Origin: a virus
Taxonomy: Duplodnaviria; Heunggongvirae; Uroviricota; Caudoviricetes
Reading direction: 5' to 3' (one strand)
DNA length: 43,481 nucleotides
Virus record (IMG/VR): IMGVR_UViG_2711768000_000011
How positions within the stretch are numbered: position 1 is the first letter of the stretch; each line of letters starts with the position of its first letter. The position numbers were made by a program, and so were the translations under genes. A model generated the notes under the pieces. It worked only from the letters and a program-made list of their open reading frames with translations, did not search any database and was not told the origin of the DNA. Positions 1 to 17,919 of the stretch are shown here, in pieces.

Positions 1-1236
1 CTACGATAACCGCGCATTCAACATGGCTACCTGTTCGTCGTTCATGTCATCAATCCACATACCGTAAATTTCATACACCATCTGCGCAGTTTCATGCCCC
101 ATCTGGCTGGCTATAAACGCCGGGTTCGCTCCTGCCGTCAACAGCCAGCAGGCAAAAGTATGCCGCGTATGGTACGGATTACGGCGGCGAATACCAGCAC
201 GTTTTACTGCTGCATTCCATCTCGCACCCAAACTGCTTACCGAGTAATAAGGTTTCTGTTTTCCGTTACACACTCTGGGCATGAAAACAAAATGCAGTTT
301 TTGCTTTTCGGTTCTGCCGTACTCCCGATGATAAAAAGTGATTTCGCTTTTGCGATGATGCCCGGTCAGTTTGTATTGCTCCTTCAGTGCTTCAAGAGCA
401 GGCTGCAGTAGTGTTACCGTCCGGATCCCCGCATTTGTTTTTGGGGGACCGAACATATCCAGTATCGTCAGGTTTCTTCTGACATTCACAACTCCCTTCT
501 CGAAATCCACATCCTCCCACGCCAGAGCAGCCAGTTCCCCGTGACGAAGCCCGGAGTATACGGCAAATTTCCACAAGTTCTGGCTCTGTCCTTTTTCACT
601 TTCCATTAATGCATTGAATTCTGTTTTAGATAACGGGTCAGGCTTTATTCTGTTTCTCTGTAATTTCTTTACTCCTTCAAATGGTTTGGTTGATATAAAT
701 CCCGACTGATACGCAAAACGTAACAACGAACAGAGCAGGGCGATATAGTTATCAACTGTGCGCACGGTTCTTCCTTTTTTGTTGGATCTTGGATTATCCA
801 GGTAAAGCGTTTCTCCATGCAGCAGTTCATTCCGGTAGTTTAAGATATCGCTATAACGAATATGCGATATCGGAGTACTCTCACAAATTATTATCCTGAG
901 TGTTTTTAATTGTGATTTCGTTTTCTTCATTGTGTTTGTTGTTAACTCTGTTTCTTTAATTTTTGTCCAGATATCACAAAGCTCCCCGAACGTTTTTATG
1001 ACCCTCGTTGTCACCATTTTTGCCCCAGTGCTGGACTGGGGAAAACGTCTTAAATACTCAAACTCACCGGAATTGATTTCATGAACTATCAACGCTCTTA
1101 AATTCCCGGCTTTTTTAATGTTACTGTTAGTAACCTCCCAGCCTTTCAATGTTTCCCGACATCGTTTTCCTCGAAACATGAACCAGATGCGAATGTATTT
1201 ACCTCGAATCTCGACACCTGTTGGTAATTTAGACAT
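1..1236 (-). CDS. intR: Tyrosine site-specific integrase, 411 aa (Rac IntR-like)
   Basis: Complete 411-aa ORF with stop at nt 1-3. N-terminus MSKLPTGVEIRGKYIRIW and C-terminal HTRHTFACWLL...YEIYGMW match the tyrosine-recombinase catalytic motif pattern. Recognised from memory as Rac IntR. Confidence 0.9.
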   Translation of the reverse strand: MSKLPTGVEIRGKYIRIWFMFRGKRCRETLKGWEVTNSNIKKAGNLRALIVHEINSGEFEYLRRFPQSSTGAKMVTTRVIKTFGELCDIWTKIKETELTTNTMKKTKSQLKTLRIIICESTPISHIRYSDILNYRNELLHGETLYLDNPRSNKKGRTVRTVDNYIALLCSLLRFAYQSGFISTKPFEGVKKLQRNRIKPDPLSKTEFNALMESEKGQSQNLWKFAVYSGLRHGELAALAWEDVDFEKGVVNVRRNLTILDMFGPPKTNAGIRTVTLLQPALEALKEQYKLTGHHRKSEITFYHREYGRTEKQKLHFVFMPRVCNGKQKPYYSVSSLGARWNAAVKRAGIRRRNPYHTRHTFACWLLTAGANPAFIASQMGHETAQMVYEIYGMWIDDMNDEQVAMLNARLS

Positions 1237-1237
1237 A

Positions 1238-1453
1238 TCATGAGTCTTTGATAAACTGATTTATCTTTGGATAGTTATACCAGATAATCCCTCGCTTACT
1301 GTCTGGCTTCCCTAAAGGAGATACTCGTTTGAAGTGGAAGCCTTCCACCCAACAGTTCTGGCGGTATGCTTCAATTTGTCTGGCCCCCAGACCAGTGCGA
1401 AGCATCAGGCCGTATTCAACCATCCACTCTTCATTAAAGATTACTTGTGCCAT
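1238..1453 (-). CDS. xisR: Excisionase-like protein, 71 aa (YdaQ/XisR-like)
   Basis: Small ORF immediately upstream of int on the same strand. Taken from internal ATG ([15 protein letters not shown]...), giving 71 aa as in Rac YdaQ. Confidence 0.7.
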
Positions 1454-1552
1454 CGCATCACCTCTGGCAGGCGCCAATGTTAGACTTAAATTGACGCCCG
1501 ATGTTGATTATTAATAATCAGCTATGAAGTTTTAATTTGAATACAATGCAAT

Positions 1553-1741
1553 TCACGAGGACTGAAGTTTCTCGCAATTAAAATTTATCAGTTTTACTTT
1601 CTGCTCTCTGGAAACGCCTGCTTCTTTTTTACCTGAGAGCATTTTTTCGCATTCTGATTTCGTTAGTTTAGATTTTGAATATCTTGTCCAGTTAGTAGGA
1701 GTGCCACCTTCCTTTTCAATAGTGGCGGTAATTTTATACAT
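1553..1741 (-). CDS. ydaC: Small Rac protein YdaC-like, 62 aa from MYKITATIEK
   Basis: ATG at 1741-1739 is preceded by GGAGGTG. Its start overlaps the end of the ralR reading frame (ATGTATAA). The 86-aa track ORF is an upstream extension without an RBS. Confidence 0.55.
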   Translation of the reverse strand: MYKITATIEKEGGTPTNWTRYSKSKLTKSECEKMLSGKKEAGVSREQKVKLINFNCEKLQSS

Positions 1742-1928
1742 GAACACCTCCATTATTATTTCCAGTGGTTCGTTTATTTCATCGTTCGAGTGCTTCTTTT
1801 TCACTTCCACCATAACCGGTTCGGGATTCGCATCCGTTACACTTCGCTCGGTAATATCCTGAAATGGCTTTCACCGTTACTGATGGACAACCACAAAATG
1901 GACATGGTTTAACATTGTCATATCTCAT
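1734..1928 (-). pseudogene. ralR: ralR-like toxin gene (Cys4 small DNase of the RalR/RalA type I TA pair) interrupted by an in-frame TGA
   Basis: Frame from ATG 1928 reads MRYDNVKPCPFCGCPSVTVKAISGYYRAKCNGCESRTGYGGSEKEALER, then TGA at 1781-1779. Reading through gives NKRTTGNNNGGVHV and TAA at 1736-1734, exactly 64 codons, the recalled RalR length. Not in the ORF track because it is under 60 aa. Confidence 0.5.
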
Positions 1929-1956
1929 AATTTTTCTCATAAAAATATTTCAAGTT

Positions 1957-1975
1957 GGCGGTGCATTACACCGCC
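1957..1975 (-). terminator. Hairpin (GGCGGTG-cauua-CACCGCC) just downstream of recT stop
   Basis: 7-bp perfect inverted repeat. On the minus strand a T-rich tract follows only after about 10 nt, so this is a weak terminator call. Confidence 0.3.
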
Positions 1976-1983
1976 AGGCTGAA

Positions 1984-2793
1984 TTATTCCTCTGAATTAT
2001 CGATTACACTGTATTCCCCGGTTAATACAGAGGAATCTGCAGGATCGATTGTCAGTGGTTCCTTTTCATCCATTGATACTGCACGCTGGATCTCAATTGA
2101 TACGGGCAGATATTTGAACAGGCGACGAATAGCCGTTTTCTTTGCCATTTCTTCCCAGTGAGTTACCCACGGCCCGTTATTACCAGCTTTACTCTGGCTG
2201 CGCACCAGCTCAATCTGTTTGCGCGTCATAACTTCAAACTGAGTACCTCCGTCTTTCAGTCTTGCGACAGCATAGACGTGGGTAACAGGGGCATCTTCGT
2301 TTTCTCCTGGGCGGTGTATTAACTTTTCATCAAGGCCAAATTCGAAATTAAACTCGTCACCTTCACGGACAACACGGGCTGACAGGCTGGCGATTTGACC
2401 TGAACGGCGAGCCAGATCAATCATGCCGCGATAGCCAATGATTAGCTGAACGTTTTTTTTACCGCTCTTTTCGTTTTTATTACCAAAAGGCAGTAAATAT
2501 GCATGACCGAGGGCGCTACCGGGCTCAAGTCCGAGCTGTGAACACTGTACGATTGCACTGACAAAACTCATAGTGTCACAGTTTCCTAACGCCGGAACTT
2601 TACGAATTTCTGTGGTGGCGATACGGATCATACGTTCAGCCGTCATATGGCGTGGAAGAGCTGCTGCCAGTTGCTCTTTCATTGATGGCTGGTTAATAAA
2701 ACTAATCACGTCGTTATTTTTAATTGCTGCTGGTGCACGGTTTCCCTGAGTTTTTTGCAGATCGGCTTTTGCGATTGGTGGTTGCTTAGTCAT
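1984..2793 (-). CDS. recT: RecT single-strand annealing recombinase, 269 aa
   Basis: Sequence from [17 protein letters not shown] recognised as RecT. Start ATG 2793 has an AGGA SD and overlaps the recE stop by 8 nt. The track ORF begins 19 codons upstream. Confidence 0.9.
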
Positions 2794-5386
2794 TTGCATA
2801 TTCCTTAGCCCAGCGGGGCAGTGATAACGTCTTAATAGCTGGCCATTCATCGGTATTGAGGCAGTCAGCCAGGGTTCGCAGATTGCGGTGATATTCCAGC
2901 TGACCTGCCAGTTTTGCTTCTTCGCCCATCATGAAAATTTCAACCGGATAACGTCCGCATTCAATAGTTGTGCTGGCAACCAGAAAAACGAAAGTTGGCT
3001 GCACTCCAAACTGTGCTTCATAACCGTCACTGTAGAATGCATCCTGAACGTGATAGCGGTAGTCGTAATAAGCGGTTTTGAATCGTTGAATATCCGCCGT
3101 AGTTTTCACGTCCATGATCCAGTGAAATTCAGGGATAATTTTGTCCGGACGGCACCGACACAAAATTGCTGTTTCAGGATCTTCCCAGTAAATTGATGAT
3201 TCAGCGTGTCCGGCGCTTTCAACAAGCCATTGCCCCAGCGGCAAAGCCATAACGCTCTGATACATGAGTTCAATTTTCCGGCCTTCTTCGGCAGTGATAA
3301 CCGTTTTTCCTGTGCTTGCGCATTCCCTCAGAAACGCTTTCTCTTCTTCTTTTCCGGAGTTTGTCCGGCGGTTAAATTCAGGTGCTACGATAAAGCGGTT
3401 ACTGAATTCTTCCGGCTCAAGTACCCGGCAGTGGAAAGCGGTTCCTAAATCGAGCGTTTTTGTCTTTGTGGTGTCCACGGGGGCATTTTTACGCCACAAA
3501 TACAGTGCCGGAGTATCAGCAATGTCATCGAGCTGAGACTTACTGACACCGGGACCCGCGTGGTAATTCTCATTCGAAATTCCGTAATAAATACCTGGCT
3601 CTATGTCTTCTACGATTACGGGATCTGCGACTTCGCCAGTTTCATCACTGCAATCGCGATGCGGATCGCTGCCAGCATTCTCATTGTGCGGATGTTCAGC
3701 GCCTTCCATTTCCTCCGGATCATTTTCCTTAGCTTCAACCTGACTCTCTTCATCGAATGTTTCCTGGTATGTTGCGTCGCCCATCACCGCACCACAGTCA
3801 GGGCAGTTATCCCCGCCAGTCTGGCCGCAGGCATTGCAGGCTATTTCCGGTTCCTGTTGCACTACTGGCTCAGGTTGATTCATATCCGGGCTGGTTTTTT
3901 CCGTTTCTGGCTGGTTCTGGTACACACAATCGCGAGTCTGGATCCCCTTTACCCATTTCGGATCGTTCGGGTCGCTAATTCCGTCAACAAATTCACCACG
4001 TGATGCAGCAAGCAATTTATCGGCATCGACAGGATTTTTTGATGGAATGTTTTTCCGGGCTTCATGGAGTTCTGCCCGCAGTTCCTGATATTTCGCATCA
4101 ACAGAATTTACCTGTGACTGAGCATCCAGCGGCTGCGTGTCCTGATGATGTTCAGTTGCGTCCGGTTCCATTGTTTCAGCCTCTCCCTGTTCAACTGCCG
4201 TTGTTCCAGATGGTTGCGGTTTTTCTTCATCATCCTGTTTTCCTTCTTCTGTTACTCGCTGCGGCATCGGGGCAGAGGAGCGACCGCAGGCAATATCCAC
4301 GATTTCCGGATCAGGGTTGGCATGATCGGTTTCAGTCAGTACTTTGTTCAGATATTCAGTGACGTGCGCGGGGATGACCTCGATCCCAATTGGTGCTTCT
4401 TTTACGGACGCAACCACGATGGCGCGGGAATAATCCAGCCCGCCAGGCATGGTGATGAATTTGTCGCGGAAAACAGAAAAGGGCGGTTTATTTTCAGCGA
4501 TAATTTCCTCAATGCGTTTAGCGTGTGCCGGATGAAGGTTATAGATGTCCAGATCCATTGAACGGGCCAGTACGCCAGTGGCTACGTCCCGCGCCAGTGA
4601 CGTCAGATCGTGTACGAAACCTTCGCCGCGATCGGTGAGGTTTCCGCCGCCAGCATTAGCACCGGAAGCCGTGCGAGTGATGTGTGAAACACGATTACCC
4701 TTCATCCACTCTTTTGTCAGCAGTCCTCGATCGGTGTAGTCAGCGTTCAGGTATGCTTCGAAAAAAGCAGTTATCAGTCCCAGGTTTGAATTACCAGGAT
4801 TAGGGAAAACTTTGTCAGTGTCACGAACCAGTTTGTGGAGTTCGCGAATTTCCAGCGGGTCGAGCAGGCTGGTTTTGTGGGAAACAGCCAGGGCAGTAAC
4901 AGCCGGTAGTTCTTCAGCCCGAGCAATGTGTAATGCCTGGAGTCCGTCGCGTGAAACGTGCGTTACCGGTTTTTCGCTGCCGTGTTGAGCAAGCCAACGA
5001 ATGGGCAGTTCCTGGCCAGAAATTGGGAGTAGCATATTCTCCTCAATCTCAGTCATGTCTTCGCCGTTGACGTTGGTATTGCCTTGATAGTGAGCGTTGT
5101 CTGGTGCTGCTCCCGGTTTTAGTTCCCATGTCATGGAGTCTTTGCTGAGTTGATAGCGTTCACTCCAGGTAAAATCGATCTCACCTTCAGCGGGCAGGTC
5201 ATTAACGACAGGAAAATTCGTGGCAACAGCTTTAAAATAGCTGCTCAGTTTTTTACCTGACTTAACGATCAGGTAGTCCAGAGTGGCACAGGTCGATTCA
5301 AAATCGTTGCTTGCCCACAGGACGACGTCAGGTTCACCGGATGATTTTTTCGCTTTCCGTAACAGGAAGAGTGGTTTTGTGCTCAT
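2786..5386 (-). CDS. recE: Exodeoxyribonuclease VIII RecE, 866 aa
   Basis: 866-aa ORF with acidic/proline-rich central region and C-terminal nuclease domain. Length and sequence recognised as Rac RecE; translationally coupled to recT. Confidence 0.9.
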
Positions 5387-5457
5387 TGTTTTTTAACCTC
5401 AACTCAGATTAAAATTCGTTTTGTTCAGTGAATGATCTTGCCGGATACACACTGTTC

Positions 5458-5482
5458 ATAGCCTGCGCCATACGCAGGCTAT
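5458..5482 (+). terminator. Hairpin ATAGCCTGCG-ccaua-CGCAGGCTAT followed by TTCTTTC on the + strand, in the racC-recE spacer
   Basis: 10-bp perfect inverted repeat with a 5-nt loop. The T-rich tail is on the + strand only, although the flanking genes are on the minus strand. Confidence 0.35.
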
Positions 5483-5487
5483 TTCTT

Positions 5488-5763
5488 TCAGATTTCACCT
5501 TTTAATTTCATTGCAATTAGAGTTGCCAGAAATTCGGCTTTTTTTTCTGCGGGCAGATTCTTTCCGATATGCACCAGGCACATTTTTTTGACACCTTCAT
5601 CAAGTGTTTTTACGTTGCCTGATGGACCATCGATATCAACCACAGTGAATGGGGTTTCTTTATTTTCTGTTTTAATTACGTAGCCAATGCGCTTTCCTTC
5701 CAGATTCACCTCGTGAACAATGTCATCGGTAGTTACAACAGTGGCTTCATAATTGGTAATCAT
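5488..5763 (-). CDS. racC: RacC, 91 aa
   Basis: From ATG 5763 (MITNYEATVVTTDDIV...) preceded by AAGGAG. Length matches Rac RacC. The track ORF has a 16-codon upstream extension. Confidence 0.8.
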   Translation of the reverse strand: MITNYEATVVTTDDIVHEVNLEGKRIGYVIKTENKETPFTVVDIDGPSGNVKTLDEGVKKMCLVHIGKNLPAEKKAEFLATLIAMKLKGEI

Positions 5764-5837
5764 GTTTTTCTCCTTAATTAAGGTTGAGCGAATACCTGCC
5801 ATTTCTGGCATAAATTCAGTTTCGAATAGTCAATTAA

Positions 5838-6008
5838 TTAAAGTTCATGTGCCATCTGGTCTTTTTCGGCACAAGCTTCACTGCAATATTTTCTCGGTTC
5901 GTCTTTTGATAAAATCCCGTGCATGAAGTGAAGCATTCTTTCAATAGCTTTGCTTTCTTCAACGTCTTTTTTGCAAAGGTGGTAAGCACATTTTATTTTC
6001 TTAGTCAT
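5838..6008 (-). CDS. ydaE: YdaE-like zinc-binding small protein, 56 aa
   Basis: Hand translation: [59 protein letters not shown] overlaps the kilR stop (TGATG). Missing from the ORF track because it is under 60 aa. Confidence 0.75.
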   Translation of the reverse strand: MTKKIKCAYHLCKKDVEESKAIERMLHFMHGILSKDEPRKYCSEACAEKDQMAHEL

Positions 6009-6229
6009 CACCATGACTCCGCCTTTACAGGTAAACCATCACGACCGAGGAAGACTTTAATCATGCGGTCAGTAATGCATGTTTTTGTGGTCAGGTTACG
6101 AATATATAGTTTTCGCTTTTTAATATTGTTTGCCGAGGCAATATATGTCCGGCCTTCATGAAGAACATAATCGCCAGGAGTCACACACTGACGTGGTATT
6201 TCATCAGTTCCGAAGTGATGTGCAATCAT
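6008..6229 (-). CDS. kilR: KilR cell-division (FtsZ) inhibitor, 73 aa
   Basis: From second ATG ([15 protein letters not shown]...) with GGAG 7 nt upstream. 73 aa matches Rac KilR. Confidence 0.8.
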
Positions 6230-6410
6230 AATTATCTCCATTTTTACAAATGAACTTTGTTGATGCGGTGCCTGGTGCCTCCAGGTGACTGCAACCAGTT
6301 AACAATTACAGTCGGCTTTCCCACCCAAACCAATAAGGACTAACATGACTTTTAACTGTGCCACGTGCGCTTAGCCGCATTCACCGCATCACAAAATTCA
6401 CTTTAAAAAG

Positions 6411-6452
6411 GGCGGACATCAGCCGAACTTCAAGAAAAAAACTGATGCCGCC
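6411..6452 (-). terminator. Stem-loop (GGCGGCATCAG...CTGATGTCCGCC) followed by CTTTTT on the minus strand, upstream of kilR
   Basis: 11-12 bp imperfect inverted repeat with a large loop; the T-run is on the minus strand only. Candidate leftward terminator or attenuator. Confidence 0.35.
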
Positions 6453-6670
6453 AGGACTACACACAGCAATGTCGTTATTTACAACCGGAGGCGCACTCCC
6501 ACCATTTAAATTTAACAGACAAGACCGACTCTTTATGGATATCGGAAATGCGCCTTCGTGTTGTGCCCGGTTTTATTTCACCACCTCCGGGCTTCGGTGG
6601 TCTCGGCTATACCCCTACAGCGAGAGCTTGTGTTAACATTTCAATACCCTTACAGTTGAGAGTTATTGAT

Positions 6671-7159
6671 ATGTTGGATGTATTTACTCCATTGTTGAAA
6701 CTTTTTGCTAACGAGCCACTCGAAATACTTATGTATACGATTATCATTTTTGGTCTCACTCTCTGGCTGATACCGAAAGAGTTTACTGTCGCATTCAATG
6801 CTTATACTGAAATACCTTGGCTCTTTCAGATTATCGTTTTTGCCTTTTCTTTCGTGGTCGCCATTTCCTTCTCAAGATTGCGAGCACATATTCAAAAGCA
6901 TTATTCATTACTACCAGAGCAACGAGTATTGCTTCGTTTATCTGAGAAAGAAATCGCTGTATTTAAAGATTTCCTTAAAACAGGAAATCTTATTATCACT
7001 TCTCCTTGCCGTAACCCGGTTATGAAAAAATTAGAACGGAAGGGCATCATTCAACATCAGAGTGATAGCGCAAACTGTTCTTATTATCTCGTCACCGAAA
7101 AATACTCCCATTTTATGAAGTTATTCTGGAACAGCAGGAGTAGACGTTTTAATCGTTAG
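6671..7159 (+). CDS. sieB: Superinfection exclusion protein SieB, 162 aa
   Basis: From ATG 6671 (MLDVFTPLLKLFANEPLE...), with two hydrophobic segments. 162 aa as recalled for SieB. The track ORF carries a 41-codon 5' extension. Confidence 0.8.
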   Translation: MLDVFTPLLKLFANEPLEILMYTIIIFGLTLWLIPKEFTVAFNAYTEIPWLFQIIVFAFSFVVAISFSRLRAHIQKHYSLLPEQRVLLRLSEKEIAVFKDFLKTGNLIITSPCRNPVMKKLERKGIIQHQSDSANCSYYLVTEKYSHFMKLFWNSRSRRFNR

Positions 7160-7311
7160 CTTACTGTGTGCTTCTCCAACCATCGGCGCGCACCAGTTTC
7201 GGTTTTAAATGTTTTGCTTTTGGTATACGTCATGGCAGTGAACGTTCCATCCTGGTTGGGGAACACGCCGCACACCAGGGATTCGTTGTTGCCGAGGTCG
7301 ATTTTTTGCAT
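7156..7311 (-). CDS. ydaF: YdaF-like small protein, 51 aa
   Basis: Hand translation MQKIDLGNNESLVCGVFPNQDGTFTAMTYTKSKTFKTETGARRWLEKHTVS. Stop overlaps the sieB stop (convergent). Under 60 aa, so not in the track. Confidence 0.65.
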   Translation of the reverse strand: MQKIDLGNNESLVCGVFPNQDGTFTAMTYTKSKTFKTETGARRWLEKHTVS

Positions 7312-7321
7312 TTTGCGAATC

Positions 7322-7456
7322 TCACATCTTGTTGCTGTGTATAGCGACTTCTGCCTGCCAGAGATCCCAGTCGTTGCTGCGTAAAGCCTGCACAGCCTGG
7401 TTGTAAGTGATACCGCAACAATCCATCAAATACTGAACTACTTCGTAATGCACCAT
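7322..7456 (-). CDS. ydaG: YdaG-like small protein, 44 aa
   Basis: From ATG 7456 (MVHYEVVQYLMDCCGITYNQ...) preceded by a strong SD GGGGAGAG. Confidence 0.65.
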   Translation of the reverse strand: MVHYEVVQYLMDCCGITYNQAVQALRSNDWDLWQAEVAIHSNKM

Positions 7457-7630
7457 CTTATCTCTCCCCTTAACGCCGGGTGGCGGAACTGAAACCTGCT
7501 GCACTGCAAAATCTGAACCCTGCCGTCATGTTCATACGCCTCGGGCTGGCTACTTAACCCCTGACCACTGCCTGGTAACTCGAAGTATTGCCCTGCGTTC
7601 TGTGGGGCGGGGTGGGTTGGTAGGTATATA

Positions 7631-7671
7631 ATGTACTTTGTGTTCATTGATGTAAAGTACTATAAGTACAT
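7631..7671. promoter_or_regulatory. Operator-like repeat cluster (ATGTACT-N3-AGTW/TGTT), candidate OL/PL region
   Basis: ATGTACT at 7631-7637. Palindromic AGTACTATAAGTACAT at 7656-7671 contains the same heptamer on the minus strand. Same motif as the repeats in the repressor/cro intergenic region. Confidence 0.45.
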
Positions 7672-7746
7672 TTTGTGTGTAAAAAAATGAGATGGGATAA
7701 AGTGAAGCACAAACCCGGAGGGGGACGCTACCGGATTTATGCTGGT

Positions 7747-8184
7747 TTAAGAGGCTTTTTGTTTTTTCTTTCGTGCTAGCTCTTCGTAAATTGCATTGTA
7801 CTTCTGTTTTTTCTCCTCAAGAGTTTTTAAAAGTTCATCTGTCTCACTGTCAGGGAGCTCGTCCAGAAGGTCAATGATGATTTTTTGTCTTGGATTTAAC
7901 TCCTGATAGAAACGTACCTGTCCACTTTCTTCTGTATCCTCTCCCAAAAGATAGGTTGGTGTTGTTCCAATGAGTGTTGCTAATTCCCTTAATTTCTCTC
8001 GGCGAGGAATTGTTTCGCCATTAAACCATTTGCTAACCGCTTTTGGTGTTAATTTCATTCGACGGGCAATTTCTGCCTGCCTTCCATGTTGTTCATAACC
8101 AGCGTTTTCACAGGCTAGCGCAAGCCTACTGGCGAACTCTTTACGCGCTTTATCTTCATGAACCATAAGTTCAATGATATTCAC
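7747..8184 (-). CDS. Prophage repressor, XRE-family HTH N-terminus with coiled-coil C-terminus and no S24 peptidase domain (RacR position)
   Basis: HTH segment QAEIARRMKLTPKAVSKWFNGE. Divergent from the Cro-like gene. Start is GTG 8184 or ATG 8166. C-terminal part is charged/helical rather than a LexA-like protease. Confidence 0.7.
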   Translation of the reverse strand: MNIIELMVHEDKARKEFASRLALACENAGYEQHGRQAEIARRMKLTPKAVSKWFNGETIPRREKLRELATLIGTTPTYLLGEDTEESGQVRFYQELNPRQKIIIDLLDELPDSETDELLKTLEEKKQKYNAIYEELARKKKQKAS

Positions 8185-8186
8185 TC

Positions 8187-8228
8187 TTGAATGTACTGTC
8201 AGTTCTGTTATAGCATGTACTCAAAGTT
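8187..8228. promoter_or_regulatory. Divergent promoter/operator region: two direct 14-bp repeats ATGTACTnnnAGTT overlapping a candidate PR (-35 TTGAAT, -10 TATAGC)
   Basis: Repeats at 8191-8204 and 8215-8228 lie between the repressor start and the Cro-like start. Confidence 0.45.
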
Positions 8229-8245
8229 CACATTGTGAGGGTGAT

Positions 8246-8500
8246 ATGAACCAGAAAACACTTGAAGATGTAATCAAAACTGTTCGCGTTTCTGTTGTGG
8301 CCGACGTTTGTGGTGTCAGCCAAAGAGCAATCTACAAATGGATGGATAACGGAAAATTGCCTCGCACAGAATATACCGGCGAAACAAATTACGCTGAAAA
8401 AATCGCTCATGCATCAAACGGATTATTTTCTGCTGATGTAATTTTAACTATTGGCAGAAATAAAACTACTACGAAAAAGCTGATGGGAGTTGATTCATGA
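8246..8500 (+). CDS. Cro/YdaS-like HTH protein, 84 aa from ATG 8246
   Basis: GAGGGTGA SD before ATG 8246. HTH VADVCGVSQRAIYKWMDNGKLP. First gene of the rightward operon, with stop overlapping the next start (ATGA). Confidence 0.65.
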   Translation: MNQKTLEDVIKTVRVSVVADVCGVSQRAIYKWMDNGKLPRTEYTGETNYAEKIAHASNGLFSADVILTIGRNKTTTKKLMGVDS

Positions 8501-8919
8501 AAATCAAGCATGAGCACATCGAGTCAGTGTTGTTAGCCCTGGCAGCCGAAAAAGGGCAGGCATGGGTAGCCAATGCCATTACTGAAGAATATCTGCGCCA
8601 GGGGGGCGGCGAATTGCCCCTGGTACCAGGCAAGGACTGGAATAATCAGCAGAATATCTATCACCGTTGGTTGAAAGGTGAAACGAAAACGCAAAGAGAA
8701 AAAATTCAGAAGCTGATCCCAGCAATTCTGGCAATCCTTCCGCGCGAGCTGCGTCACCGACTCTGCATCTTCGATACCCTGGAACGCCGTGCATTACTGG
8801 CGGCGCAGGAAGCGTTAAGTACGGCAATTGATGCGCATGATGATGCAGTCCAAGCCGTTTACCGGAAAGCGCATTTCAGCGGCGGCGGGTCTTCCGACGA
8901 TTCTGTCATTGTTCATTAA
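8497..8919 (+). CDS. ydaT: YdaT-like protein, 140 aa (toxic partner of YdaS in Rac)
   Basis: 140-aa ORF coupled to the upstream Cro-like gene. Length and position match Rac YdaT. Confidence 0.7.
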   Translation: MKIKHEHIESVLLALAAEKGQAWVANAITEEYLRQGGGELPLVPGKDWNNQQNIYHRWLKGETKTQREKIQKLIPAILAILPRELRHRLCIFDTLERRALLAAQEALSTAIDAHDDAVQAVYRKAHFSGGGSSDDSVIVH

Positions 8920-8931
8920 GCAAAAGTTTCC

Positions 8932-9789
8932 ATGCTGTTTGTGCTTATTCTAAGCCACCGGGCAGCATCATACGGGGCAATTATGGCCGCATTACCATAC
9001 ATGCAACTGTACATAGCTGATTACCTGGCTGACACCATGCATTTGTCAGCAGAGGAGCATGGTGCGTATTTGTTGCTGATGTTCAATTACTGGCAAACAG
9101 GAAAGCCAATACCTAAAAACAGGCTGGCAAAAATTGCCCGTCTGACTAACGAGCGATGGGCTGATGTTGAACCATCCTTGCAGGAGTTTTTTTGCGATAA
9201 CGGCGAGGAATGGGTGCATCTTCGGATTGAGGAAGATCTGGCATCAGTCAGGGAAAAATTAACCAAAAAATCAGCCGCAGGAAAAGCATCTGTTCAGGCC
9301 AGAAGAAGCAGAAAGGAAGCAGATGTTCAAACAAAACAAGAGAGAAATTTAACAGGTGTTCAAACAGATGTTGAAGTGGTGTTTGAACATGATGTCAACA
9401 CAAAGGCAACTAATAAAGATACAGATAAAGATCTAAAAACAGATCCCCCCCTAAATCCCCCCCGGGGGAATCGAGGTGTCAAAAAGTTTGACCCTCTGGA
9501 TATTGCTTTGCCGAACTGGATTTCTGTCTCGCTTTGGCGTGAGTGGGTTGAATTTCGCCAGGCATTGCGAAAACCGATTCGAACGGAGCAGGGCGCTAAC
9601 GGGGCGATACGGGAGCTGGAAAAATTCCGCCAGCAGGGTTTTTCACCTGAGCAGGTGATTCGACACAGCATCGCCAATGAATACCAGGGCTTGTTCGCGC
9701 CGAAAGGTGTTCGACCTGAGACGTTACTCCGACAGGTTAACACCGTCTCGTTACCGGATAGTGCGATCCCGCCAGGCTTCAGGGGGTAA
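8932..9789 (+). CDS. ydaU: Replication initiation-like protein YdaU, 285 aa (DUF1376-like)
   Basis: 285-aa ORF with N-terminal conserved segment MAALPYMQLYIADYLADTMHLSAEEHGAYLLL. Position matches the lambda O analogue. Confidence 0.8.
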   Translation: MLFVLILSHRAASYGAIMAALPYMQLYIADYLADTMHLSAEEHGAYLLLMFNYWQTGKPIPKNRLAKIARLTNERWADVEPSLQEFFCDNGEEWVHLRIEEDLASVREKLTKKSAAGKASVQARRSRKEADVQTKQERNLTGVQTDVEVVFEHDVNTKATNKDTDKDLKTDPPLNPPRGNRGVKKFDPLDIALPNWISVSLWREWVEFRQALRKPIRTEQGANGAIRELEKFRQQGFSPEQVIRHSIANEYQGLFAPKGVRPETLLRQVNTVSLPDSAIPPGFRG

Positions 9790-9795
9790 CTGACC

Positions 9796-10226
9796 ATGAA
9801 AAATATTGCGACAGGCGACGTTCTTGAACGTATCCGCAGACTGGCCCCGTCACATGTAACCGCGCCATTCAAGACGGTAGCGGAGTGGCGCGAGTGGCAA
9901 CTTTCCGAAGGCCAGAAACGTTGTGAGGAGATCAACCGTCAGAATCGTCAGTTGCGGGTGGAAAAAATTCTGAATCGCTCTGGCATCCAGCCATTGCACC
10001 GCAAATGCTCGTTTTCGAATTACCAGGTGCAGAACGAAGCGCAGCGATACGCGTTGAGTCAGGCGAAATCCATCGCTGATGAACTGATGACCGGGTGTAC
10101 AAATTTTGCGTTCAGCGGAAAACCTGGTACCGGGAAGAACCACTTAGCGGCAGCTATCGGGAATCGCCTGCTGAAAGACGGTCAGACAGTGATTGTGGTT
10201 ACCGTGGCTGATGTTATGAGTGCCCT
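9796..10226 (+). CDS. ydaV: DnaC-like helicase loader (IstB-type AAA+), 3' end lost in assembly gap
   Basis: Walker A GKPGTGKNHLAAAIG. The ORF runs into the N-run at 10227. The track's 422-aa ORF is an artefactual fusion across the gap. Confidence 0.75.
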
Positions 10227-10278
10227 NNNNNNNNNNNNNNNNNNNNNNNNNNNNNNNNNNNNNNNNNNNNNNNNNNNN
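10227..10278. other. Assembly gap (52 N)
   Basis: Run of N characters. Confidence 1.
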
Positions 10279-10302: not shown

Positions 10303-11064
10303 ATGGAGACTGTTTTTGACGCACTGAAAGCAATGGGAAAAGCCACATCCATAGAACTTGCTGCGCGACTTGATATCAGTCGTGAAGAAGTGCTGAACGA
10401 ACTATGGGAACTGAAAAAAGCTGGTTTCGTTGATAAAAGCGCGTACACCTGGCGTGTGGCTGATAACAACGTTCAGCAGGAACAGCCAATGCAGGCAGAA
10501 CTGCCGGAAGAAACCACCACGGCAACTGTAGTGAAAATCTCAGAGTGCGATTTAACCGCGACGATTGAACAACGCGGACCACAAACGGCGGATGAACTGG
10601 CTACGCTGTTCGGTACAACATCCCGCAAAGTTGCTTCAACGCTGGCAATGGCAATCAGCAAAGGACGCCTGATTCGCGTAAACCAGAACAGTAAATTTCG
10701 TTACTGCATGCCGGGCGATAATTTACCAGCAGAGCCGAAAGCTGCATCGGTAGCGGAAACTGATGGTAAAGCCTTTCCTCAGCCAGCCGGTGTTGCGTTA
10801 CCAGTACAGGAAGCGGCAACACAGGAAGATATTAAAACAGAAACTGTGGCGGACATTGTGCAGTCGCTGCCATCGTTTACTGAAACGCAAGCGGATGACC
10901 TAGTTTTACCATCGCTGCATATGGCAAACCGCGAACTGCGTCGGGCGAAAAATCATGTCCAGAAGTGGGAGCGAGTCTGCGCCGCGCTGCGGGAGCTGAA
11001 CAAGCACCGGGATATTGTCCGACAGATTGTCGATTCCTCCAGTCGTATTGTGTCGGAAAAGTGA
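10303..11064 (+). CDS. Hypothetical protein with two winged-helix-like segments and a C-terminal coiled coil, 253 aa
   Basis: ATG 10303 with GGGAGG SD just after the gap. Function unknown. Confidence 0.6.
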
Positions 11065-11079
11065 TTGCCGGAGGCGCTT

Positions 11080-11496
11080 ATGGCAAAAGTTTTTACACAG
11101 GAAGAGCGTGAAAAAATTAAGGAGCAGGTTGTTGAGTTGGTACGCCAGAGTGGGCGCGAGACGTTAAGGCAACTGGAGGCCAAGACAGGTGCGACAAGAT
11201 ATCTGATGAGCATTCTTGCCAGAGAGTTGGTTGCCAGTGGCGATGTATACAACTCTGGCTATGGGTTATTCCCGTCTGAACAGGCTCGTAAGGATTGGAA
11301 AAACGCCCGCAAAAAACTATCCAGGGCAAAGGTGAAAAAAACGGTTGTGGTTGATCCTGACCTTATCTGGTCATTACCAGACGGAGAAATACGCCGCTAT
11401 GACAGGCGTCAGAACATAATCTGTCGCGAGTGCCGGAAGAGTGAAGTTATGAAACGTGTACTGGCATTTTATCAAGGAAATCTTCGGTATTTATAG
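11080..11496 (+). CDS. Hypothetical basic protein, about 138 aa
   Basis: ATG 11080 preceded by GGAGG. Contains CxxC (ICRECRK). The track start 11065 overlaps the previous stop. Confidence 0.55.
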   Translation: MAKVFTQEEREKIKEQVVELVRQSGRETLRQLEAKTGATRYLMSILARELVASGDVYNSGYGLFPSEQARKDWKNARKKLSRAKVKKTVVVDPDLIWSLPDGEIRRYDRRQNIICRECRKSEVMKRVLAFYQGNLRYL

Positions 11497-11634
11497 ACGT
11501 TACTAGATCAAAGAGCATTAGTTCATATGTAAATTGACATTTTTCTGGCACAGGGGAGAGCTAGCGTGGTTGTCCGCTTTGTGCCAATAGCGGACATTGC
11601 TGGCTCATGGTATGTTAGTTTAAGGAGGCAGGTT

Positions 11635-12657
11635 ATGCCCTGTATTTCGCTGTGGTATAATAGTTGCGCAATTGATACAAGGGAGCGTTACATCGTGAAA
11701 ATTGTTTTCGAGGTTAATGGAAAGAAAGTTCCACTAAAATCTTTAAAATACATAAGCAAAAAAGATCAACTCGAAGTAATGAAAAACTGGTTCTTTGAAA
11801 ACTTTGAAGATCCGGCAAATGCTTGTCCGTATGAAAGTAGAGAAGGTGGCTATGCTTACATATATGGCGGGCCGTATGATGCGAGCGAAGAACTACAATC
11901 CATCTTCGGTCAATATGTTAAATCTGAGTATATTGAGGAATTAGTAGATGAATTACAAACACAATGTTTTGACTGGTCTGGAAACTCAAATAATATAGAT
12001 GATTGGTACGATGATGATATCTACGACGCTGTAACGTCTTCCGGTAATCCGTATTTAAAATTCATTGATAATATCGATAAAATAAAAAAACTTGCAAAAG
12101 ATAAAACTGAACAACAGCAAAAAAACCACTTGCTTAGTTTGCTCTACACGAATGTTATTACAGCTTTGGAAACGCTTTATGTTGAGCTATTCATTAATTC
12201 TATAGAGAAAGATGATGTCTACATAGCCAATTGTATAGAAAAAGGTAAGACTGAATTTAAAGTAAGCAAAGATATTGCTGCGTTGCCTTTCAAGGGTGAA
12301 CCCATCGAGAAAATTAGGGGAGAGCTAATCAGGTCAATCAAGGAACACTTGATCAGTGCAAGCTGGCATAGCACTAAAAAGGTAATCGACCGCTATGAAG
12401 CTACATTCGATATAAAAGTACAAAAAGACTGTCCGATAGAAGCTATTGAATTGGCAACCCTCAATCGAAATCACTTAGTGCATCGTGGTGGAAAGGATAA
12501 AGAAGGGAACCTCGTAGTGATTACAGACCAGGATCTTGAAACGCTGATTGAAAATGCATCGAACCTGGCAATTATGCTCTACAACAGTTTAAATGTAGCA
12601 ACGAATAAAACCACCATTTTGCAACCAGATGACAAACCGTTCATTCATGAATTTTAA
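11635..12657 (+). CDS. Cassette gene A: hypothetical low-GC protein with an Rx4H (HEPN-like) motif RNHLVH
   Basis: Start ambiguous: ATG 11635 with AAGGAGG SD, or GTG 11695 with GGGAG SD. Coding region is about 35% GC. Acidic N-terminal half and helical C-terminal half. No recognisable phage function. Confidence 0.7.
   Translation: MPCISLWYNSCAIDTRERYIVKIVFEVNGKKVPLKSLKYISKKDQLEVMKNWFFENFEDPANACPYESREGGYAYIYGGPYDASEELQSIFGQYVKSEYIEELVDELQTQCFDWSGNSNNIDDWYDDDIYDAVTSSGNPYLKFIDNIDKIKKLAKDKTEQQQKNHLLSLLYTNVITALETLYVELFINSIEKDDVYIANCIEKGKTEFKVSKDIAALPFKGEPIEKIRGELIRSIKEHLISASWHSTKKVIDRYEATFDIKVQKDCPIEAIELATLNRNHLVHRGGKDKEGNLVVITDQDLETLIENASNLAIMLYNSLNVATNKTTILQPDDKPFIHEF
11653..11661 (+). promoter_or_regulatory. 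Candidate extended -10 (TGgTATAAT) upstream of or within the start of cassette gene A
   Basis: Motif seen directly; a perfect TTGACA lies at 11534-11539. Conflicts with the ATG 11635 start, so either the promoter or that start is wrong. Confidence 0.3.
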
Positions 12658-12672
12658 TAGCGCAGGTCATAC

Positions 12673-13674
12673 ATGGATATTCGCACACGAAAGACAAAAT
12701 TTTTAGAGTCGTTAGATTCAACTGAAGTGATACGCAAAGCAGTAAGTCTCGCTATAGATTGCATTATTGATAATCATAATAGTAATGAAGATACCCCCTT
12801 AGTTATTACCAGCTATGATGATCTCTGTAGAATCCAGGTGCTAAATTATGTACAGGAGTTTTGCGAAGCTGCATTCCCTGATATGGATGAATATTACTTT
12901 AGTCCTAACATACTTCGCATCAACGGCAAGACTAGTGAAGAAGCTTGTATTAACTTAATTAAACTCTTAAGAAGTACAAAAGGCATGCTATTCTGGTCCG
13001 ATGCCCCATCGTGGTTCGCTAGCCTCCCCGACGGATTATTCCATGTTGTTAACATTGATCAAAAAATCGTTACTCGCGGCCTTAATAAGAAAAACTCTAA
13101 GCCGACAATAATCAATAAAGATTACAGTGTAGATACACTACTATCAGAGCTATTTTTGAATGGCGCACACATGGAGCAACCCAACGTACACAACGTTTCT
13201 GAGGGAAACATGAAGTTCTATGATGAATGCCATGCTGGATTAATCAGACCAATACCCGCTCCAATAGGCGCGTCATACGATGAAGAGATCACAATTAATT
13301 CTCCAGATTGGCAAAAGCTCGCGTGTGTAGCTTTACGCCGCTATCAGTCGAAGGAATGTCATGACGGAATGCAATGGGATACAACCGATCATGGTTGGAC
13401 TGATGTAATCGCGTATCCATTCGTCGAAGAAATACAATCAATGGATAATAGTGGTTATCGACAATGTTTAGTTGGGCTGGTCACAATAAACAATTCAAAT
13501 GCAAATTCTCCGTACCTATCTACCGTTTGGATACATCCATTTTATCGCAGGAGAGGGTTATTAAGTAAGTTATGGCCAAAATTACAAGAGTTATATGGAA
13601 GTAACTTCGAAATTGAGCGACCTAATGAAAATATGAAAGCATTTCTGAAAAGTGCGAAACACGCAGATTACTAA
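12673..13674 (+). CDS. Cassette gene B: hypothetical low-GC protein, 333 aa, with a weak GNAT-like motif near the C-terminus
   Basis: Starts 15 nt after gene A stop, so likely co-transcribed. C-terminal LVGLVTI...HPFYRRRGLLSKLW resembles a GNAT beta-strand plus motif A, non-canonically. No recognisable phage function. Confidence 0.7.
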   Translation: MDIRTRKTKFLESLDSTEVIRKAVSLAIDCIIDNHNSNEDTPLVITSYDDLCRIQVLNYVQEFCEAAFPDMDEYYFSPNILRINGKTSEEACINLIKLLRSTKGMLFWSDAPSWFASLPDGLFHVVNIDQKIVTRGLNKKNSKPTIINKDYSVDTLLSELFLNGAHMEQPNVHNVSEGNMKFYDECHAGLIRPIPAPIGASYDEEITINSPDWQKLACVALRRYQSKECHDGMQWDTTDHGWTDVIAYPFVEEIQSMDNSGYRQCLVGLVTINNSNANSPYLSTVWIHPFYRRRGLLSKLWPKLQELYGSNFEIERPNENMKAFLKSAKHADY

Positions 13675-14235
13675 TTTATGAATCAGTCTGTGGAGTTAGG
13701 GTTGGTGTGAACAAGTAGGGTAAGAGCCTCAACGTGATGCTATGCCGACCTGCTCCCTGAGAATTCACACAGAAGGCTGCTAGCAATGTCTGCAGATCGC
13801 TCAAAGCGGACTAAAATGTTGGCTTGTTTCTGACTTAGAGCATTTAAGGAAGTGCTGGTGGTGACTGGTTGTTGTGTTCCATTTCTACAGAATAAAATCA
13901 CAGAAACTATACCCAATAGTTGTATTGAATCACTGACGAGACAGCCTCATATTTATCAGGACTGGTGTGCGTCTAATACAGGGGGTTGTCGTGCTGGTTC
14001 TCAAATGTGCGCTGGCTATTGCGGCTGTAATGGCAATTTATTGTCTTGCTGTTGTTCTTATGGAGCGGCTTTCTGATTGATTACATACTGGCTAGAAAAA
14101 AGGTGTTACCTTGGTTTATCTTTGTCCGGCAAGGTGCGCTCATTAATCTTAAGTAAATTTATTGCTCAAGTATTCAGATTACTTCTTATGGTTGAAGTCT
14201 CCTGTCAATGTAGAACCAATATATTTACAAAAATG

Positions 14236-14265
14236 AGACCCGTCGGGGATAGCCCTGCCGGGTCT
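14236..14265 (-). terminator. Rho-independent terminator for the YeaR-like gene
   Basis: AGACCCG ... CGGGTCT 7-bp stem, followed on the minus strand by CATTTTTG, immediately 3' of the gene stop. Confidence 0.55.
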
Positions 14266-14294
14266 GACTGTTAAAGCATTTTTAATATGATCAT

Positions 14295-14633
14295 CTATTT
14301 TTTGGTGCTATAGACTTTTTCGCCCGAAAAGTCTGGAGCGACCCAAAAGTTAATATTAAACTGAGCATCATCGCTTAGTTCAACACGGTGCCAGTATTGT
14401 GGTGGGCTTGTTGCAAAAGCGCCAGCATTAATGACTACTTTTATCTCCGGTTCAGTAGCATTCTCATCAGTAAAACCATAATATGTTACAGTGCCTTCCA
14501 TTACGCACAACTGCCCAAAAACACCTGCTGCTGTATTATGATGTGTTAATAACGCTGAAGGTACGTTCTCTTTTGTGAAGAACGGAGTTGAGCGTTTGAT
14601 TACCCAATCTTTAGGAATTCTCTTGTGTGTCAT
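14295..14633 (-). CDS. YeaR-like DUF1971 (cupin-like) protein, 112 aa
   Basis: ATG 14633 preceded by GGAGGAGG. Pattern RSTPF...G...V..G.V.YYGF.DE...EP...V.....FA..PP..WH......FNI.F.V.P matches recalled E. coli YeaR. Transcribed opposite to flanking phage genes. Confidence 0.65.
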   Translation of the reverse strand: MTHKRIPKDWVIKRSTPFFTKENVPSALLTHHNTAAGVFGQLCVMEGTVTYYGFTDENATEPEIKVVINAGAFATSPPQYWHRVELSDDAQFNINFWVAPDFSGEKVYSTKK

Positions 14634-15446
14634 AACCACCTCCTCCAAAACATGCATTAAAAATGCATCTTTTGGAGGGTTATGTCAAGCTGTTATGAAA
14701 CACATAATTGATATGTTGATTAGAGGAGAAGATAGAATAAATATGGTTGTTTTTCGTATAACTATTTGTTTTACTTTTAGTTTATGCATTCTGTGTGTTA
14801 GGAATAAGTTATTAAAGTTTAATCAAAAAATCTCGATGTAGTCCACATAGATTACTGTTACTGAACCTTATTGTGTGTATTAGTTGTGTTCTGAAATTTC
14901 AGCTTAATTATTTATGATGTATTTTTTAACGATAAATATTTTCCCAGGATACCTTTACTGTGTATATAAATAAATTATATACGCATAAATAATGTAAAGG
15001 CGTCCTTTTAGATATATCTTATCAAATGTTAATGACTTGAGTGGGAAATATGATTCCAGCAACTTATCATGTGGCTACTTTATAAAAATAATGCCCATAT
15101 AAAACAACAAGCGAAAAGGATTACGGATAAAAAAGGAGCGAGATGTGCGAACTTGTTATTTTCCATGTTTAACCACCTTAAATAATTGATGATGACGGGA
15201 TGATTGCATCTGTAATGCTTTTATTGAAATGTTATGATAAAAAAGAACTTTTGCATAACATTAAAATGTAATTTATCTAATCGTTTTTAATAATAAGTGT
15301 CGTATTTCTATCCTTGTACCAGCTATTTGATATGTAGTGTTTGTTCATGCTATGTGGGGCTTTACACCATAGCCAGTTTATTTATACTTTATTCGTCAGC
15401 CTGAACAACTGGCATCTGCTGCGCTGCGCCATCGAGAGATTGAGAA

Positions 15447-16046
15447 ATGGCGCATATACAACTGGTCAAACAAACCTCTTCTGGTTTACTTCTCCCGGCG
15501 ACGCCGGAGAGTTGCGATTTTCTGCATCAAATCAAAATAGGTGAGTGGATACACGCAGACTTTAAGCGTGTGCGTAACTACGCATTCCACAAGCGTTTTT
15601 TCAAACTCCTGCAACTGGGATTCGATTACTGGACTCCGGTCGGTGGGGCGATCACGCCTCGCGAACGAGAACTGCTGTCTGGTTTCGTTGATTACCTGTG
15701 CGAATCAGTTGGTCGGGAACACACGCCAGCCCTGAGTGATGCCGCAGAGCAATACCTTAACACCGTTGCGACTCGTAGAACCCGGGATACGGCGTTGCTA
15801 AAGTCGTTTGAGGCTTTCCGCGAGTGGGTAACCATTCAGGCCGGATTTTACACCGAGCATATTTATCCGGACGGTAGCCGTGGGCGTCGGGCAAAATCCA
15901 TCGCTTTTGCGAATATGGACGAAGTCGAGTTTCAGCAGGTTTATAAATCTGTACTGAATGTGCTGTGGAACTGGATTCTGTTCCGTAAATTCTCCTCTCA
16001 GGAGGAAGTTGAAAATGTGGCCGCACAACTACTGGAGTTTGCGTAA
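15447..16046 (+). CDS. Conserved lambdoid nin-region protein (DUF1367-like), 199 aa
   Basis: ORF preceded by 0.8 kb of AT-rich non-coding DNA. Family assignment is from memory only. Confidence 0.6.
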   Translation: MAHIQLVKQTSSGLLLPATPESCDFLHQIKIGEWIHADFKRVRNYAFHKRFFKLLQLGFDYWTPVGGAITPRERELLSGFVDYLCESVGREHTPALSDAAEQYLNTVATRRTRDTALLKSFEAFREWVTIQAGFYTEHIYPDGSRGRRAKSIAFANMDEVEFQQVYKSVLNVLWNWILFRKFSSQEEVENVAAQLLEFA

Positions 16047-16336
16047 TGGTGAATTTACGTAAAGCGGCTAAAGGCCAGATGTGCCAGATCAGAATCCCTG
16101 GCTACTGCAATCACAATCCCGAAACCTCTGTGCTGGCGCATTACAGGCTGGCGGGGACGTGCGGAACAGCGACAAAACCACATGATATGCAGGCGGCGAT
16201 AGCCTGTAGCTCATGCCACGATCTAATCGACGGGCGGGTAAAAACCAGCGATTACACCAAAGAAGAATTGCGCCTGATGCATGCTGAAGGGGTTTTTCGC
16301 ACACAAGAAATCTGGAGAAAGAAAGGTCATTTATGA
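16046..16336 (+). CDS. YbcO-like (DUF1364) putative nuclease, 96 aa, Cys-rich
   Basis: Cys cluster CQIRIPGYC...CSSCHD. Start overlaps the upstream stop (TAATG). Confidence 0.6.
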   Translation: MVNLRKAAKGQMCQIRIPGYCNHNPETSVLAHYRLAGTCGTATKPHDMQAAIACSSCHDLIDGRVKTSDYTKEELRLMHAEGVFRTQEIWRKKGHL

Positions 16337-16875
16337 TTTACCCAACGAATACAGGAAAAAGCGGAGAACACCTTCGCCTCACCACGCTGGAAAGTGTCTG
16401 GATTCAGGGAAAACTACGTATGTGGGGGCGCTGGTCGTATATTGGCGGTGGCAGGTCAGGGAATATGTTCAATCAGTTGTTGGCATCCAAAAAACTGACG
16501 AAAACAGCCATTAATGAAGCCCTGCGCAGAATGAAAAAAGCGGGAATAGAGAAAGCTGAGCTGGAAGCGTTTTTGCGAGAGATGATCAACGGCAAGCAAA
16601 AGAGCTGGCTGGCGCATTGTACTGATGCAGAGGCGTTATGTATTGATCGAGTCATAAGTGAGGTGCTGGCAGAGCATCCAGGATTGATTTGCATTCTCCG
16701 GCAACGCTATGAAGGGCGGGGGATGACTAAGCGCAAAATGGCTGAATTGCTAAATGATGCACACCCAGAGTGGTGTTTTAGCACATGCGAAAAACGGATT
16801 GCTAATTGGTTAGCTGTTGCTGAGTATGCCCTATATATTCCCATGCGTGAATCATTTGCTGAGAAAATGGCTTGA
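16333..16875 (+). CDS. Hypothetical protein, positional candidate for late-gene antiterminator (Q-like), 180 aa
   Basis: Last gene before a strong terminator and the lysis module, as for lambda Q. ATGA overlap with the upstream gene. The functional call is positional only. Confidence 0.4.
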   Translation: MIYPTNTGKSGEHLRLTTLESVWIQGKLRMWGRWSYIGGGRSGNMFNQLLASKKLTKTAINEALRRMKKAGIEKAELEAFLREMINGKQKSWLAHCTDAEALCIDRVISEVLAEHPGLICILRQRYEGRGMTKRKMAELLNDAHPEWCFSTCEKRIANWLAVAEYALYIPMRESFAEKMA

Positions 16876-16954
16876 TTTCTTACGTATAAACTGCTTCAAT
16901 TTTGCTATGCTTCGCAAAGCTGTATCGCGAGGCGGATTGCAGACATGGACATCG

Positions 16955-17890: not shown

Positions 17891-17919
17891 CCTTTACTAT
17901 ATGACATATGTGAGGAAAA

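Follow-up and report, generated by a model that had tools for sequence, protein, structure and literature searches.

A stretch of 43,481 nucleotides from a virus assigned to the Caudoviricetes (IMG/VR record IMGVR_UViG_2711768000_000011; hereafter the window, meaning the whole stretch) carries, between positions 7623 and 8490, what is very probably a lambdoid immunity cassette of the HK022 specificity type—five predicted repressor operators, arranged as left (OL) and right (OR) clusters, in a Rac-like prophage. Both clusters lie within the cassette, together with a leftward repressor gene (7747-8166) and a rightward cro-like gene (8246-8500). As a kind of switch it is ordinary and well understood, and its sites are direct homologues of the long-known HK022 operators. 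A preliminary description, made from the letters of the window, had proposed that repeated motifs on both sides of the repressor gene are repressor operators organised like those of lambda; this proposal gains support at the sequence level from homology to HK022, from identical spacing of the sites, from their confinement to one swapped module, and from conservation of the layout in related loci.

The preliminary description reported ATGTACT-N3-AGTT as two direct repeats between the repressor and cro-like genes, with the heptamer and a palindrome recurring beyond the repressor gene. Reading out the sequence, we found each element exactly where it had been placed: ATGTACTGTCAGTT at 8191-8204, ATGTACTCAAAGTT at 8215-8228, ATGTACT at 7631-7637, and AGTACTATAAGTACAT at 7656-7671. 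The longer 15-mer ATGTACTNNNAGTTC (ATGTACT-N3-AGTTC), allowing at most one mismatch, has four matches across the 43,481 bases, all at these places (7631-7645, 8191-8205, and 8215-8229 on the plus strand; 7657-7671 on the minus strand) and nowhere else, against a chance expectation of 0.13; four matches were reached in 0 of 100 dinucleotide shuffles. The heptamer ATGTACT alone shows no significant excess in the whole window (five seen, 3.4 expected) and has a fifth occurrence at 22969. The reported 14-bp direct repeats are real in position and different in form: the sites are inverted repeats, 17-bp two-fold symmetric pseudo-palindromes of the form aTGWACy-N3-rGTWCAt, with the half-site TGWAC and a free centre. 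GTACTATAAGTAC (7657-7669) is a perfect 5+3+5 palindrome, and the occurrence at 7631 is more than a heptamer, being a complete 17-bp site, ATGTACTTTGTGTTCAT. All four sites were confirmed; a fifth, ATGAACCATAAGTTCAA (8158-8174), centred on the repressor start codon, had been missed and was revealed by comparison with the right-hand part of the HK022 immunity region. The link to HK022 had not been recognised in the preliminary description, whose errors were minor overall.

A distant blastn comparison with phage records matched the window to the HK022 immunity region. Positions 7627-7687 (61 bp) are 82% identical to HK022 2196-2256, which holds OL and pL, and positions 8006-8416 are 70% identical to the 5' end of cI, OR, and cro. 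The HK022 record (GenBank X16093) carries two annotated oL "potential repressor binding sites" (2201-2215 and 2225-2239), three annotated oR sites (3000-3014, 3033-3047, and 3057-3071), and annotated pL and pR hexamers; statements about HK022 binding made here rest on this annotation and on PMC8053113. The HK022 sites, centred at 2208 and 2232 on the left and at 3007, 3040, and 3064 on the right, have spacings identical to those in the window (24 bp on the left; 33 and 24 bp on the right) and align with them site for site, the 15-bp core of OR3 being identical to that of HK022 oR3 and oR1. With a position matrix derived solely from the five HK022 operator sites, the five window sites come out highest in the 43 kb, at 14.2-20.1 bits, and the next match reaches 11.4. 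Single scores of this kind are weak evidence, since mononucleotide-shuffled windows yield zero to two matches of at least 14 bits and a lone match at that score proves nothing; it is clustering, spacing, and homology that bear the argument. The next-best match, ATGTAGTGTTTGTTCAT (15332-15348, centre 15340), was rejected, being solitary and without the invariant C at position 6, and is probably a chance occurrence; it sits in a segment missing from the Rac prophage of Escherichia coli K-12.

The sites overlap candidate promoters. The divergent region between the repressor and cro-like genes measures 79 bp (8167-8245) and had been given as 80 bp; the rightward promoter (PR) proposed within it, TTGAAT/TATAGC, holds up as a position-for-position homologue of the annotated HK022 pR (TTGACT-16-CATAAT). 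Its -10 is preceded by a TGn extended -10 (8206-8207) and is invariant in nine E. coli variants of the cassette. OR2 overlaps the final two bases of the PR -35 (8187-8192), and OR1 begins one base past the PR -10 and covers the predicted PR start. On the opposite strand, OR2 covers the -35 of a candidate repressor promoter (PRM). Every related locus (HK022, Salmonella, Klebsiella, Citrobacter, and Providencia) has a TATNAT hexamer whose end lies exactly 7 nt ahead of the repressor ATG, the Salmonella version of this PRM -10 being a perfect TATAAT. From this position the repressor mRNA is predicted to be leaderless; a leaderless repressor promoter has been reported for K-12 racR (PMC9638921).

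On the left, OL1 covers the -10 and spacer of a candidate leftward promoter (PL) and OL2 abuts its -35. This promoter matches 9 of 12 consensus positions and is homologous to the annotated HK022 pL (TTTACA/CATCAT), with the hexamers at the same positions; TGTAAA is kept in all six loci that have OL. A hairpin (7743-7706, minus strand) with a U-rich tail, directly after the repressor stop codon, is likely a terminator that insulates OL and PL from repressor transcription. Changes among the nine cassette variants are confined to its loop; the terminator scan did not call it. The PL leader (7621-7457) has no unusual structure (z = +1.16), and an Rfam scan of 4500-10200 returned no known RNA family, hence no put- or nut-like element was detected.

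The same geometry recurs in related immunity regions, as a motif search of the kind suggested in the preliminary description brought out for loci of E. coli, Salmonella, Citrobacter, Klebsiella, and Providencia. OR3, OR2, and OR1 at 33- and 24-bp spacing are also found in Tritos, HK75, Citrobacter phage Omnitron, two Klebsiella phages, and a Providencia phage, and an OL pair 24 bp apart in Tritos, HK75, Omnitron, and one of the Klebsiella phages; in the stretches fetched for the second Klebsiella phage and the Providencia phage, the OL pair was not found. All five sites in this layout are seen in prophages of E. coli, Salmonella, and Citrobacter and in one Klebsiella phage. Metagenomic variants at 89% identity have all five sites, as do Salmonella prophages whose short repressor is 62-65% identical and in which the OL pair lies 1.3 kb from OR. 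In these Salmonella prophages, a pair of genes for a HigB toxin and a helix-turn-helix (HTH) protein, HigB/HigA-like, stands between the short repressor gene and the OL pair (L018 3053-3720; L019 3088-3755); the inserted pair recalls paaA2-parE2 in CP-933P and rexAB in lambda. Among 28 distinct sites from eight immunity regions in four genera, G3, A5, C6, and their mirror positions are invariant; position 4 accepts A or T, and the three at the centre are free to vary. In the nine E. coli cassette variants, 0 of 50 core half-site positions vary; changes are seen at 6 of the 25 positions in the centres (p = 0.0009) and at 11 of the 127 remaining non-coding ones (p = 0.035).

The protein encoded next to these sites looks like a domain mosaic, with an HK022-CI-type N-terminal domain joined to a DicA-like C-terminal domain. 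Over 99 aa, its N-terminal domain shares 47% identity with HK022 CI (E = 6e-32), and the two recognition helices, TPKAVSKWFNGE here and TPKAISKWFNGE in HK022 CI, differ by one V/I exchange. No S24 autocleavage domain was found in the 139-aa repressor, for which Pfam gives HTH families only; the C-terminal 60 residues do not match the S24-type domain of HK022 and are helical and DicA-like. The repressor is 29% identical to K-12 DicA over aa 30-137 (E = 5e-15), and the NCBIfam DicA model NF007257 scores it at 56.8 bits against a cut-off of 101, a DicA-like architecture outside the subfamily, with a recognition helix unlike that of DicA. Its match to K-12 RacR is limited to 33 aa of the HTH (E = 1e-4), which places it outside the RacR family. 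Relatives of the repressor fall into two groups—short proteins of 138-151 aa in E. coli and Salmonella, and proteins of 235-240 aa with an S24 domain, whose N-terminal domains are 62-72% identical to that of the window repressor. A sequence search of solved structures returned only the N-terminal domain of P22 C2 and no C-terminal template.

Table. Predicted operators, promoters, genes, and associated elements of the immunity cassette (window coordinates; bits are scores with the HK022 matrix)
Feature	Position	Strand	Description
OL1	7631..7647	.	ATGTACTTTGTGTTCAT; centre 7639; aligned to HK022 oL 2201-2215; 14.2 bits
OL2	7655..7671	.	AAGTACTATAAGTACAT; centre 7663, 24 bp from OL1; aligned to HK022 oL 2225-2239; 18.4 bits
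PL-like promoter	7628..7656	-	-35 TTTACA 7656..7651, 17-nt spacer, -10 CATTAT 7633..7628; promoter scan
Candidate terminator hairpin of the repressor transcript	7706..7743	-	directly after the repressor stop codon, U-rich tail; -19.7 kcal/mol, z = -3.9
Repressor gene	7747..8166	-	139 aa from ATG at 8166; XRE-type; HK022-CI-type HTH N-terminal domain ~aa 1-77
OR3	8158..8174	.	ATGAACCATAAGTTCAA; centre 8166, over the repressor ATG and the predicted PRM start; 20.1 bits, best matrix match of the window
PRM-like repressor promoter	8174..8202	-	-35 CTGACA 8202..8197 inside OR2, 17-nt spacer, -10 TATCAT 8179..8174; promoter scan
PR-like promoter	8187..8214	+	-35 TTGAAT 8187-8192, 16-nt spacer, -10 TATAGC 8209-8214; read from sequence
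OR2	8191..8207	.	ATGTACTGTCAGTTCTG; centre 8199, 33 bp from OR3; 14.9 bits; aligned to HK022 oR 3033-3047
OR1	8215..8231	.	ATGTACTCAAAGTTCAC; centre 8223, 24 bp from OR2; 16.8 bits; aligned to HK022 oR 3057-3071
cro-like gene in ydaS position	8246..8500	+	84 aa; 62% identical to HK022 Cro over 73 aa, E = 2e-34
YdaT (CII-like) box	8490..8507	.	TTGATT-N6-AATCAA over the ydaT start codon; outside the repressor operator set; read from sequence

Comparison with K-12 Rac delimits the module. Positions 1-7622 are 98.7% identical to K-12 Rac from intR to the ydaG leader, which also bears out the leftward order ydaG-ydaF-kilR-recET-xis-int given in the preliminary description, and positions 8491-10226 are 99.4% identical to K-12 ydaT-ydaU-ydaV. 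Between them, 7623-8490 has no detectable DNA similarity to K-12 racR-ydaS; on this comparison, it is an immunity cassette that replaces racR-ydaS in an otherwise 99% K-12-like Rac prophage. The left junction (7622/7623) falls ~6 bp beyond the candidate PL -10, at the predicted PL +1 (~7621), and the right junction (8490/8491) falls inside the YdaT box over the ydaT start codon, a box whose consensus, TTGATT-N6-AATCAA, has been published (PMC9986795; PMC11879457). With its junctions at the PL +1 and the YdaT box, the exchanged module therefore consists of exactly the promoters, operators, repressor, and cro. The prophage has far more DNA than the cryptic K-12 Rac and may be more complete. Positions 10753-19874, 22306-33862, and 35623-43481 have no megablast match to K-12 Rac, and masked runs of N occupy 10227-10278, 39099-39339, and 40245-40768, the first of which breaks a ydaV-like frame.

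The 868-bp cassette is widespread: 1049 of 5426 complete E. coli genomes carry it, in most cases at 95-99% identity. It occurs in Rac-like contexts with ydaF/ydaG on the left (for example, in O157:H7 NE1127 and strain W) and in Qin-like contexts with ydfA on the left, plus dicB where the flank was fetched. Deposited phage genomes carry it too (Tritos, vB_EcoS-666R9, -673R7, and -613R10), and in Tritos, as in the Qin-like prophages, it lies upstream of ydfA and dicB. In RefSeq the cassette bears only the label "helix-turn-helix domain-containing protein".

Several known switches offer points of comparison. In lambda, operators are 17 bp long and paired sites are spaced by 24 bp, PR and PRM diverge, PL lies beyond cI, and the cI mRNA is leaderless. 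The overall logic is common to lambda and the cassette, whereas there is no sequence relationship between them, OL has three sites in lambda and two here, and OR2 stands next to the PRM -35 in lambda and on it here. HK022, together with HK75 and O276, shares the operator consensus TGWAC-N5-GTWCA, the position of OR3 over the repressor ATG, and the positions of the pL and pR hexamers. It differs in its repressor (235 aa with an S24-type domain, versus 139 aa with a DicA-like C-terminus), in its OL-OR distance (~775 bp versus ~500 bp), and in its flanks, which are nun, putL, and cII there and Rac-type here, with ydaG on the left and ydaT on the right. Nothing relevant came from literature searches that sought a connection of HK022 with Rac immunity, or reports on phage Tritos.

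The DicA/DicC/dicBp system of Qin and the PaaR2/YdaS/YdaT system of CP-933P resemble the cassette in their short repressors without S24 and in having operators at two places, one being the divergent region and the other a promoter on the far side of the repressor gene (PMC10448788; PMC8630535); they differ in DNA-binding specificity, the repeat consensus of CP-933P being GTTTAGTAA (PMC8630535). Published work demonstrates a left operator set with its promoter in CP-933P (PMC8630535) and describes one at Qin dicBp (PMC10448788). The RacR-YdaS-YdaT switch of K-12 occupies the equivalent position in a Rac backbone 99% identical on both sides, and likewise has inverted-repeat operators with a 3-bp spacer and a third or fourth site over the repressor ATG (PMC9638921). 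Unlike the cassette, it has an unrelated repressor, the half-site TAGGC (operators TAGGC-N3-GCCTA), and an intergenic region of 123 bp rather than 79 bp. Passages on operators in the RacR papers place them only in the racR-ydaS intergenic region and describe xisR/intR as "far away" from racR (PMC9638921; PMC11014345), and term searches of these papers returned no mention of ydaG in PMC9638921 or of a leftward promoter in PMC11014345. Just inside the left junction, between ydaG and racR of K-12 Rac (NC_000913.3 ~1419626-1419668; L001 2127-2169), we found an OL-like RacR-type pair, ATAGGTAATGCCTAA and ATAGGCTATGCCTAA, 25 bp apart, on either side of a leftward promoter close to consensus (TTGACA-17-TATAGT). 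Depletion of RacR raises xisR and intR ~100-fold (PMC11014345), and silencing of racR derepresses ydaG, kilR, ydaE, racC, recE, recT, ralR, xisR, and intR (bioRxiv 10.64898/2026.09.06.749655). Control of leftward transcription by the left cluster, as the preliminary description had suggested, thus receives comparative support from both the HK022 pL homology and this K-12 parallel.

These comparisons suggest how the cassette might work. The 139-aa repressor would bind the 17-bp sites as dimers through its HK022-CI-type helix-turn-helix domain. With OR1 and OR2 together covering PR from -35 to +1, their occupancy would block expression of the cro-like gene, ydaT, and the replication genes; OL1 and OL2, which appear to bracket PL ~500 bp away beyond the repressor gene and the terminator-like hairpin, would when occupied silence the leftward genes ydaG, ydaF, kilR, ydaE, racC, recE, recT, ralR, xis, and int. 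The repressor's sites probably serve the cro-like protein too. Cooperative binding between neighbouring dimers is probable, and a loop may join OL to OR as in HK022, where CI binds cooperatively at adjacent operators and forms OL-OR loops in vivo (PMC8053113). The repressor probably also limits its own synthesis: because OR2 includes the predicted PRM -35 and OR3 sits over the start of the predicted leaderless transcript, negative autoregulation is expected and lambda-type activation of PRM is not, although this is the weakest part of the model. As no S24 domain is present in the repressor, induction is predicted not to proceed via RecA-stimulated self-cleavage.

Several observations sit uneasily with so direct a transfer from known switches. 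TATAGC, the PR -10, has no T at position 6, where one is usual, and for this reason PR was not called by the promoter scan. OR2, centred at about -33 on the predicted PRM -35, is a misfit with lambda-style PRM activation. At window positions equivalent to two further HK022 elements, OL3 (53 bp from OL2) and OFR (just past cro), the matrix gives nothing of at least 7.3 bits; the same matrix detects both in HK022 (2285 and 3331) and in HK75. Finally, the cooperativity and looping of HK022 CI are not simply transferable to the window repressor, because its C-terminal domain differs.

We considered whether the sites might serve a protein or purpose other than repression of both promoters. That they are mainly used by the cro-like protein, the motif then reflecting Cro specificity, could be argued from the identity of that protein to HK022 Cro (62%), which is closer than that of the repressor to CI, and from CP-933P and lambdoid phages, in which Cro-like proteins bind the repressor's operators (PMC8630535). 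We nonetheless judge this improbable as a rival account: in lambdoid switches the operators are common to both proteins, so that use by Cro complements binding by the repressor rather than replacing it, and the recognition helix of the repressor is nearly identical to that of HK022 CI. Still less probable is that the left cluster is an inherited relic, or a mere looping anchor for OR, with no active leftward promoter under its control. The 9-of-12 consensus match of the candidate PL and its CATTAT -10 might be read in this way; on the other hand, TTTACA and the -10 stand at the annotated pL positions of HK022, whose own pL is TTTACA/CATCAT, TGTAAA is conserved in six of six OL loci, and the core half-sites are invariant in the nine variants. 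In K-12 Rac, moreover, the equivalent place is taken by a leftward promoter close to consensus, and loss of RacR derepresses the leftward genes of that prophage.

The possibility that the repeats arose by chance, or are sites of another factor such as the CII-like YdaT, draws on the absence of over-representation of the heptamer ATGTACT alone. The full motif, by contrast, is highly non-random, and the YdaT box differs in both sequence and place; the shuffle statistics, the site-by-site alignment with HK022, and the HK022-only matrix refute this explanation, to which we attach almost no probability. Five repressor operators of the HK022 type, organised as OL and OR, therefore remain the reading that we prefer.

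This reading leaves the current understanding of lambdoid switches unchanged. It assigns operators, promoters, and an HK022-like specificity to a widespread cassette, including the copies in O157:H7 and strain W, and predicts that in carrier strains the switch would silence kilR, recET, ralR, and xis-int (dicB/dicF in Qin-like contexts) and that induction would not go via RecA cleavage. The cassette also offers a clean natural case of immunity-module exchange, with junctions at the PL +1 and the YdaT box. More tentatively, and as a proposal that we would sooner doubt than assert, it may represent a natural domain swap in which a RecA-unresponsive, DicA-like C-terminus operates a DNA-binding domain of HK022 type together with the complete HK022 operator geometry. 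If true, a structurally unrelated oligomerisation domain would achieve both pairwise cooperativity and OL-OR bridging, and Rac- and Qin-like prophages in about one-fifth of complete E. coli genomes would have HK022-type operator specificity; such prophages might then provide cross-immunity to HK022-type phages or be cross-repressed by them.

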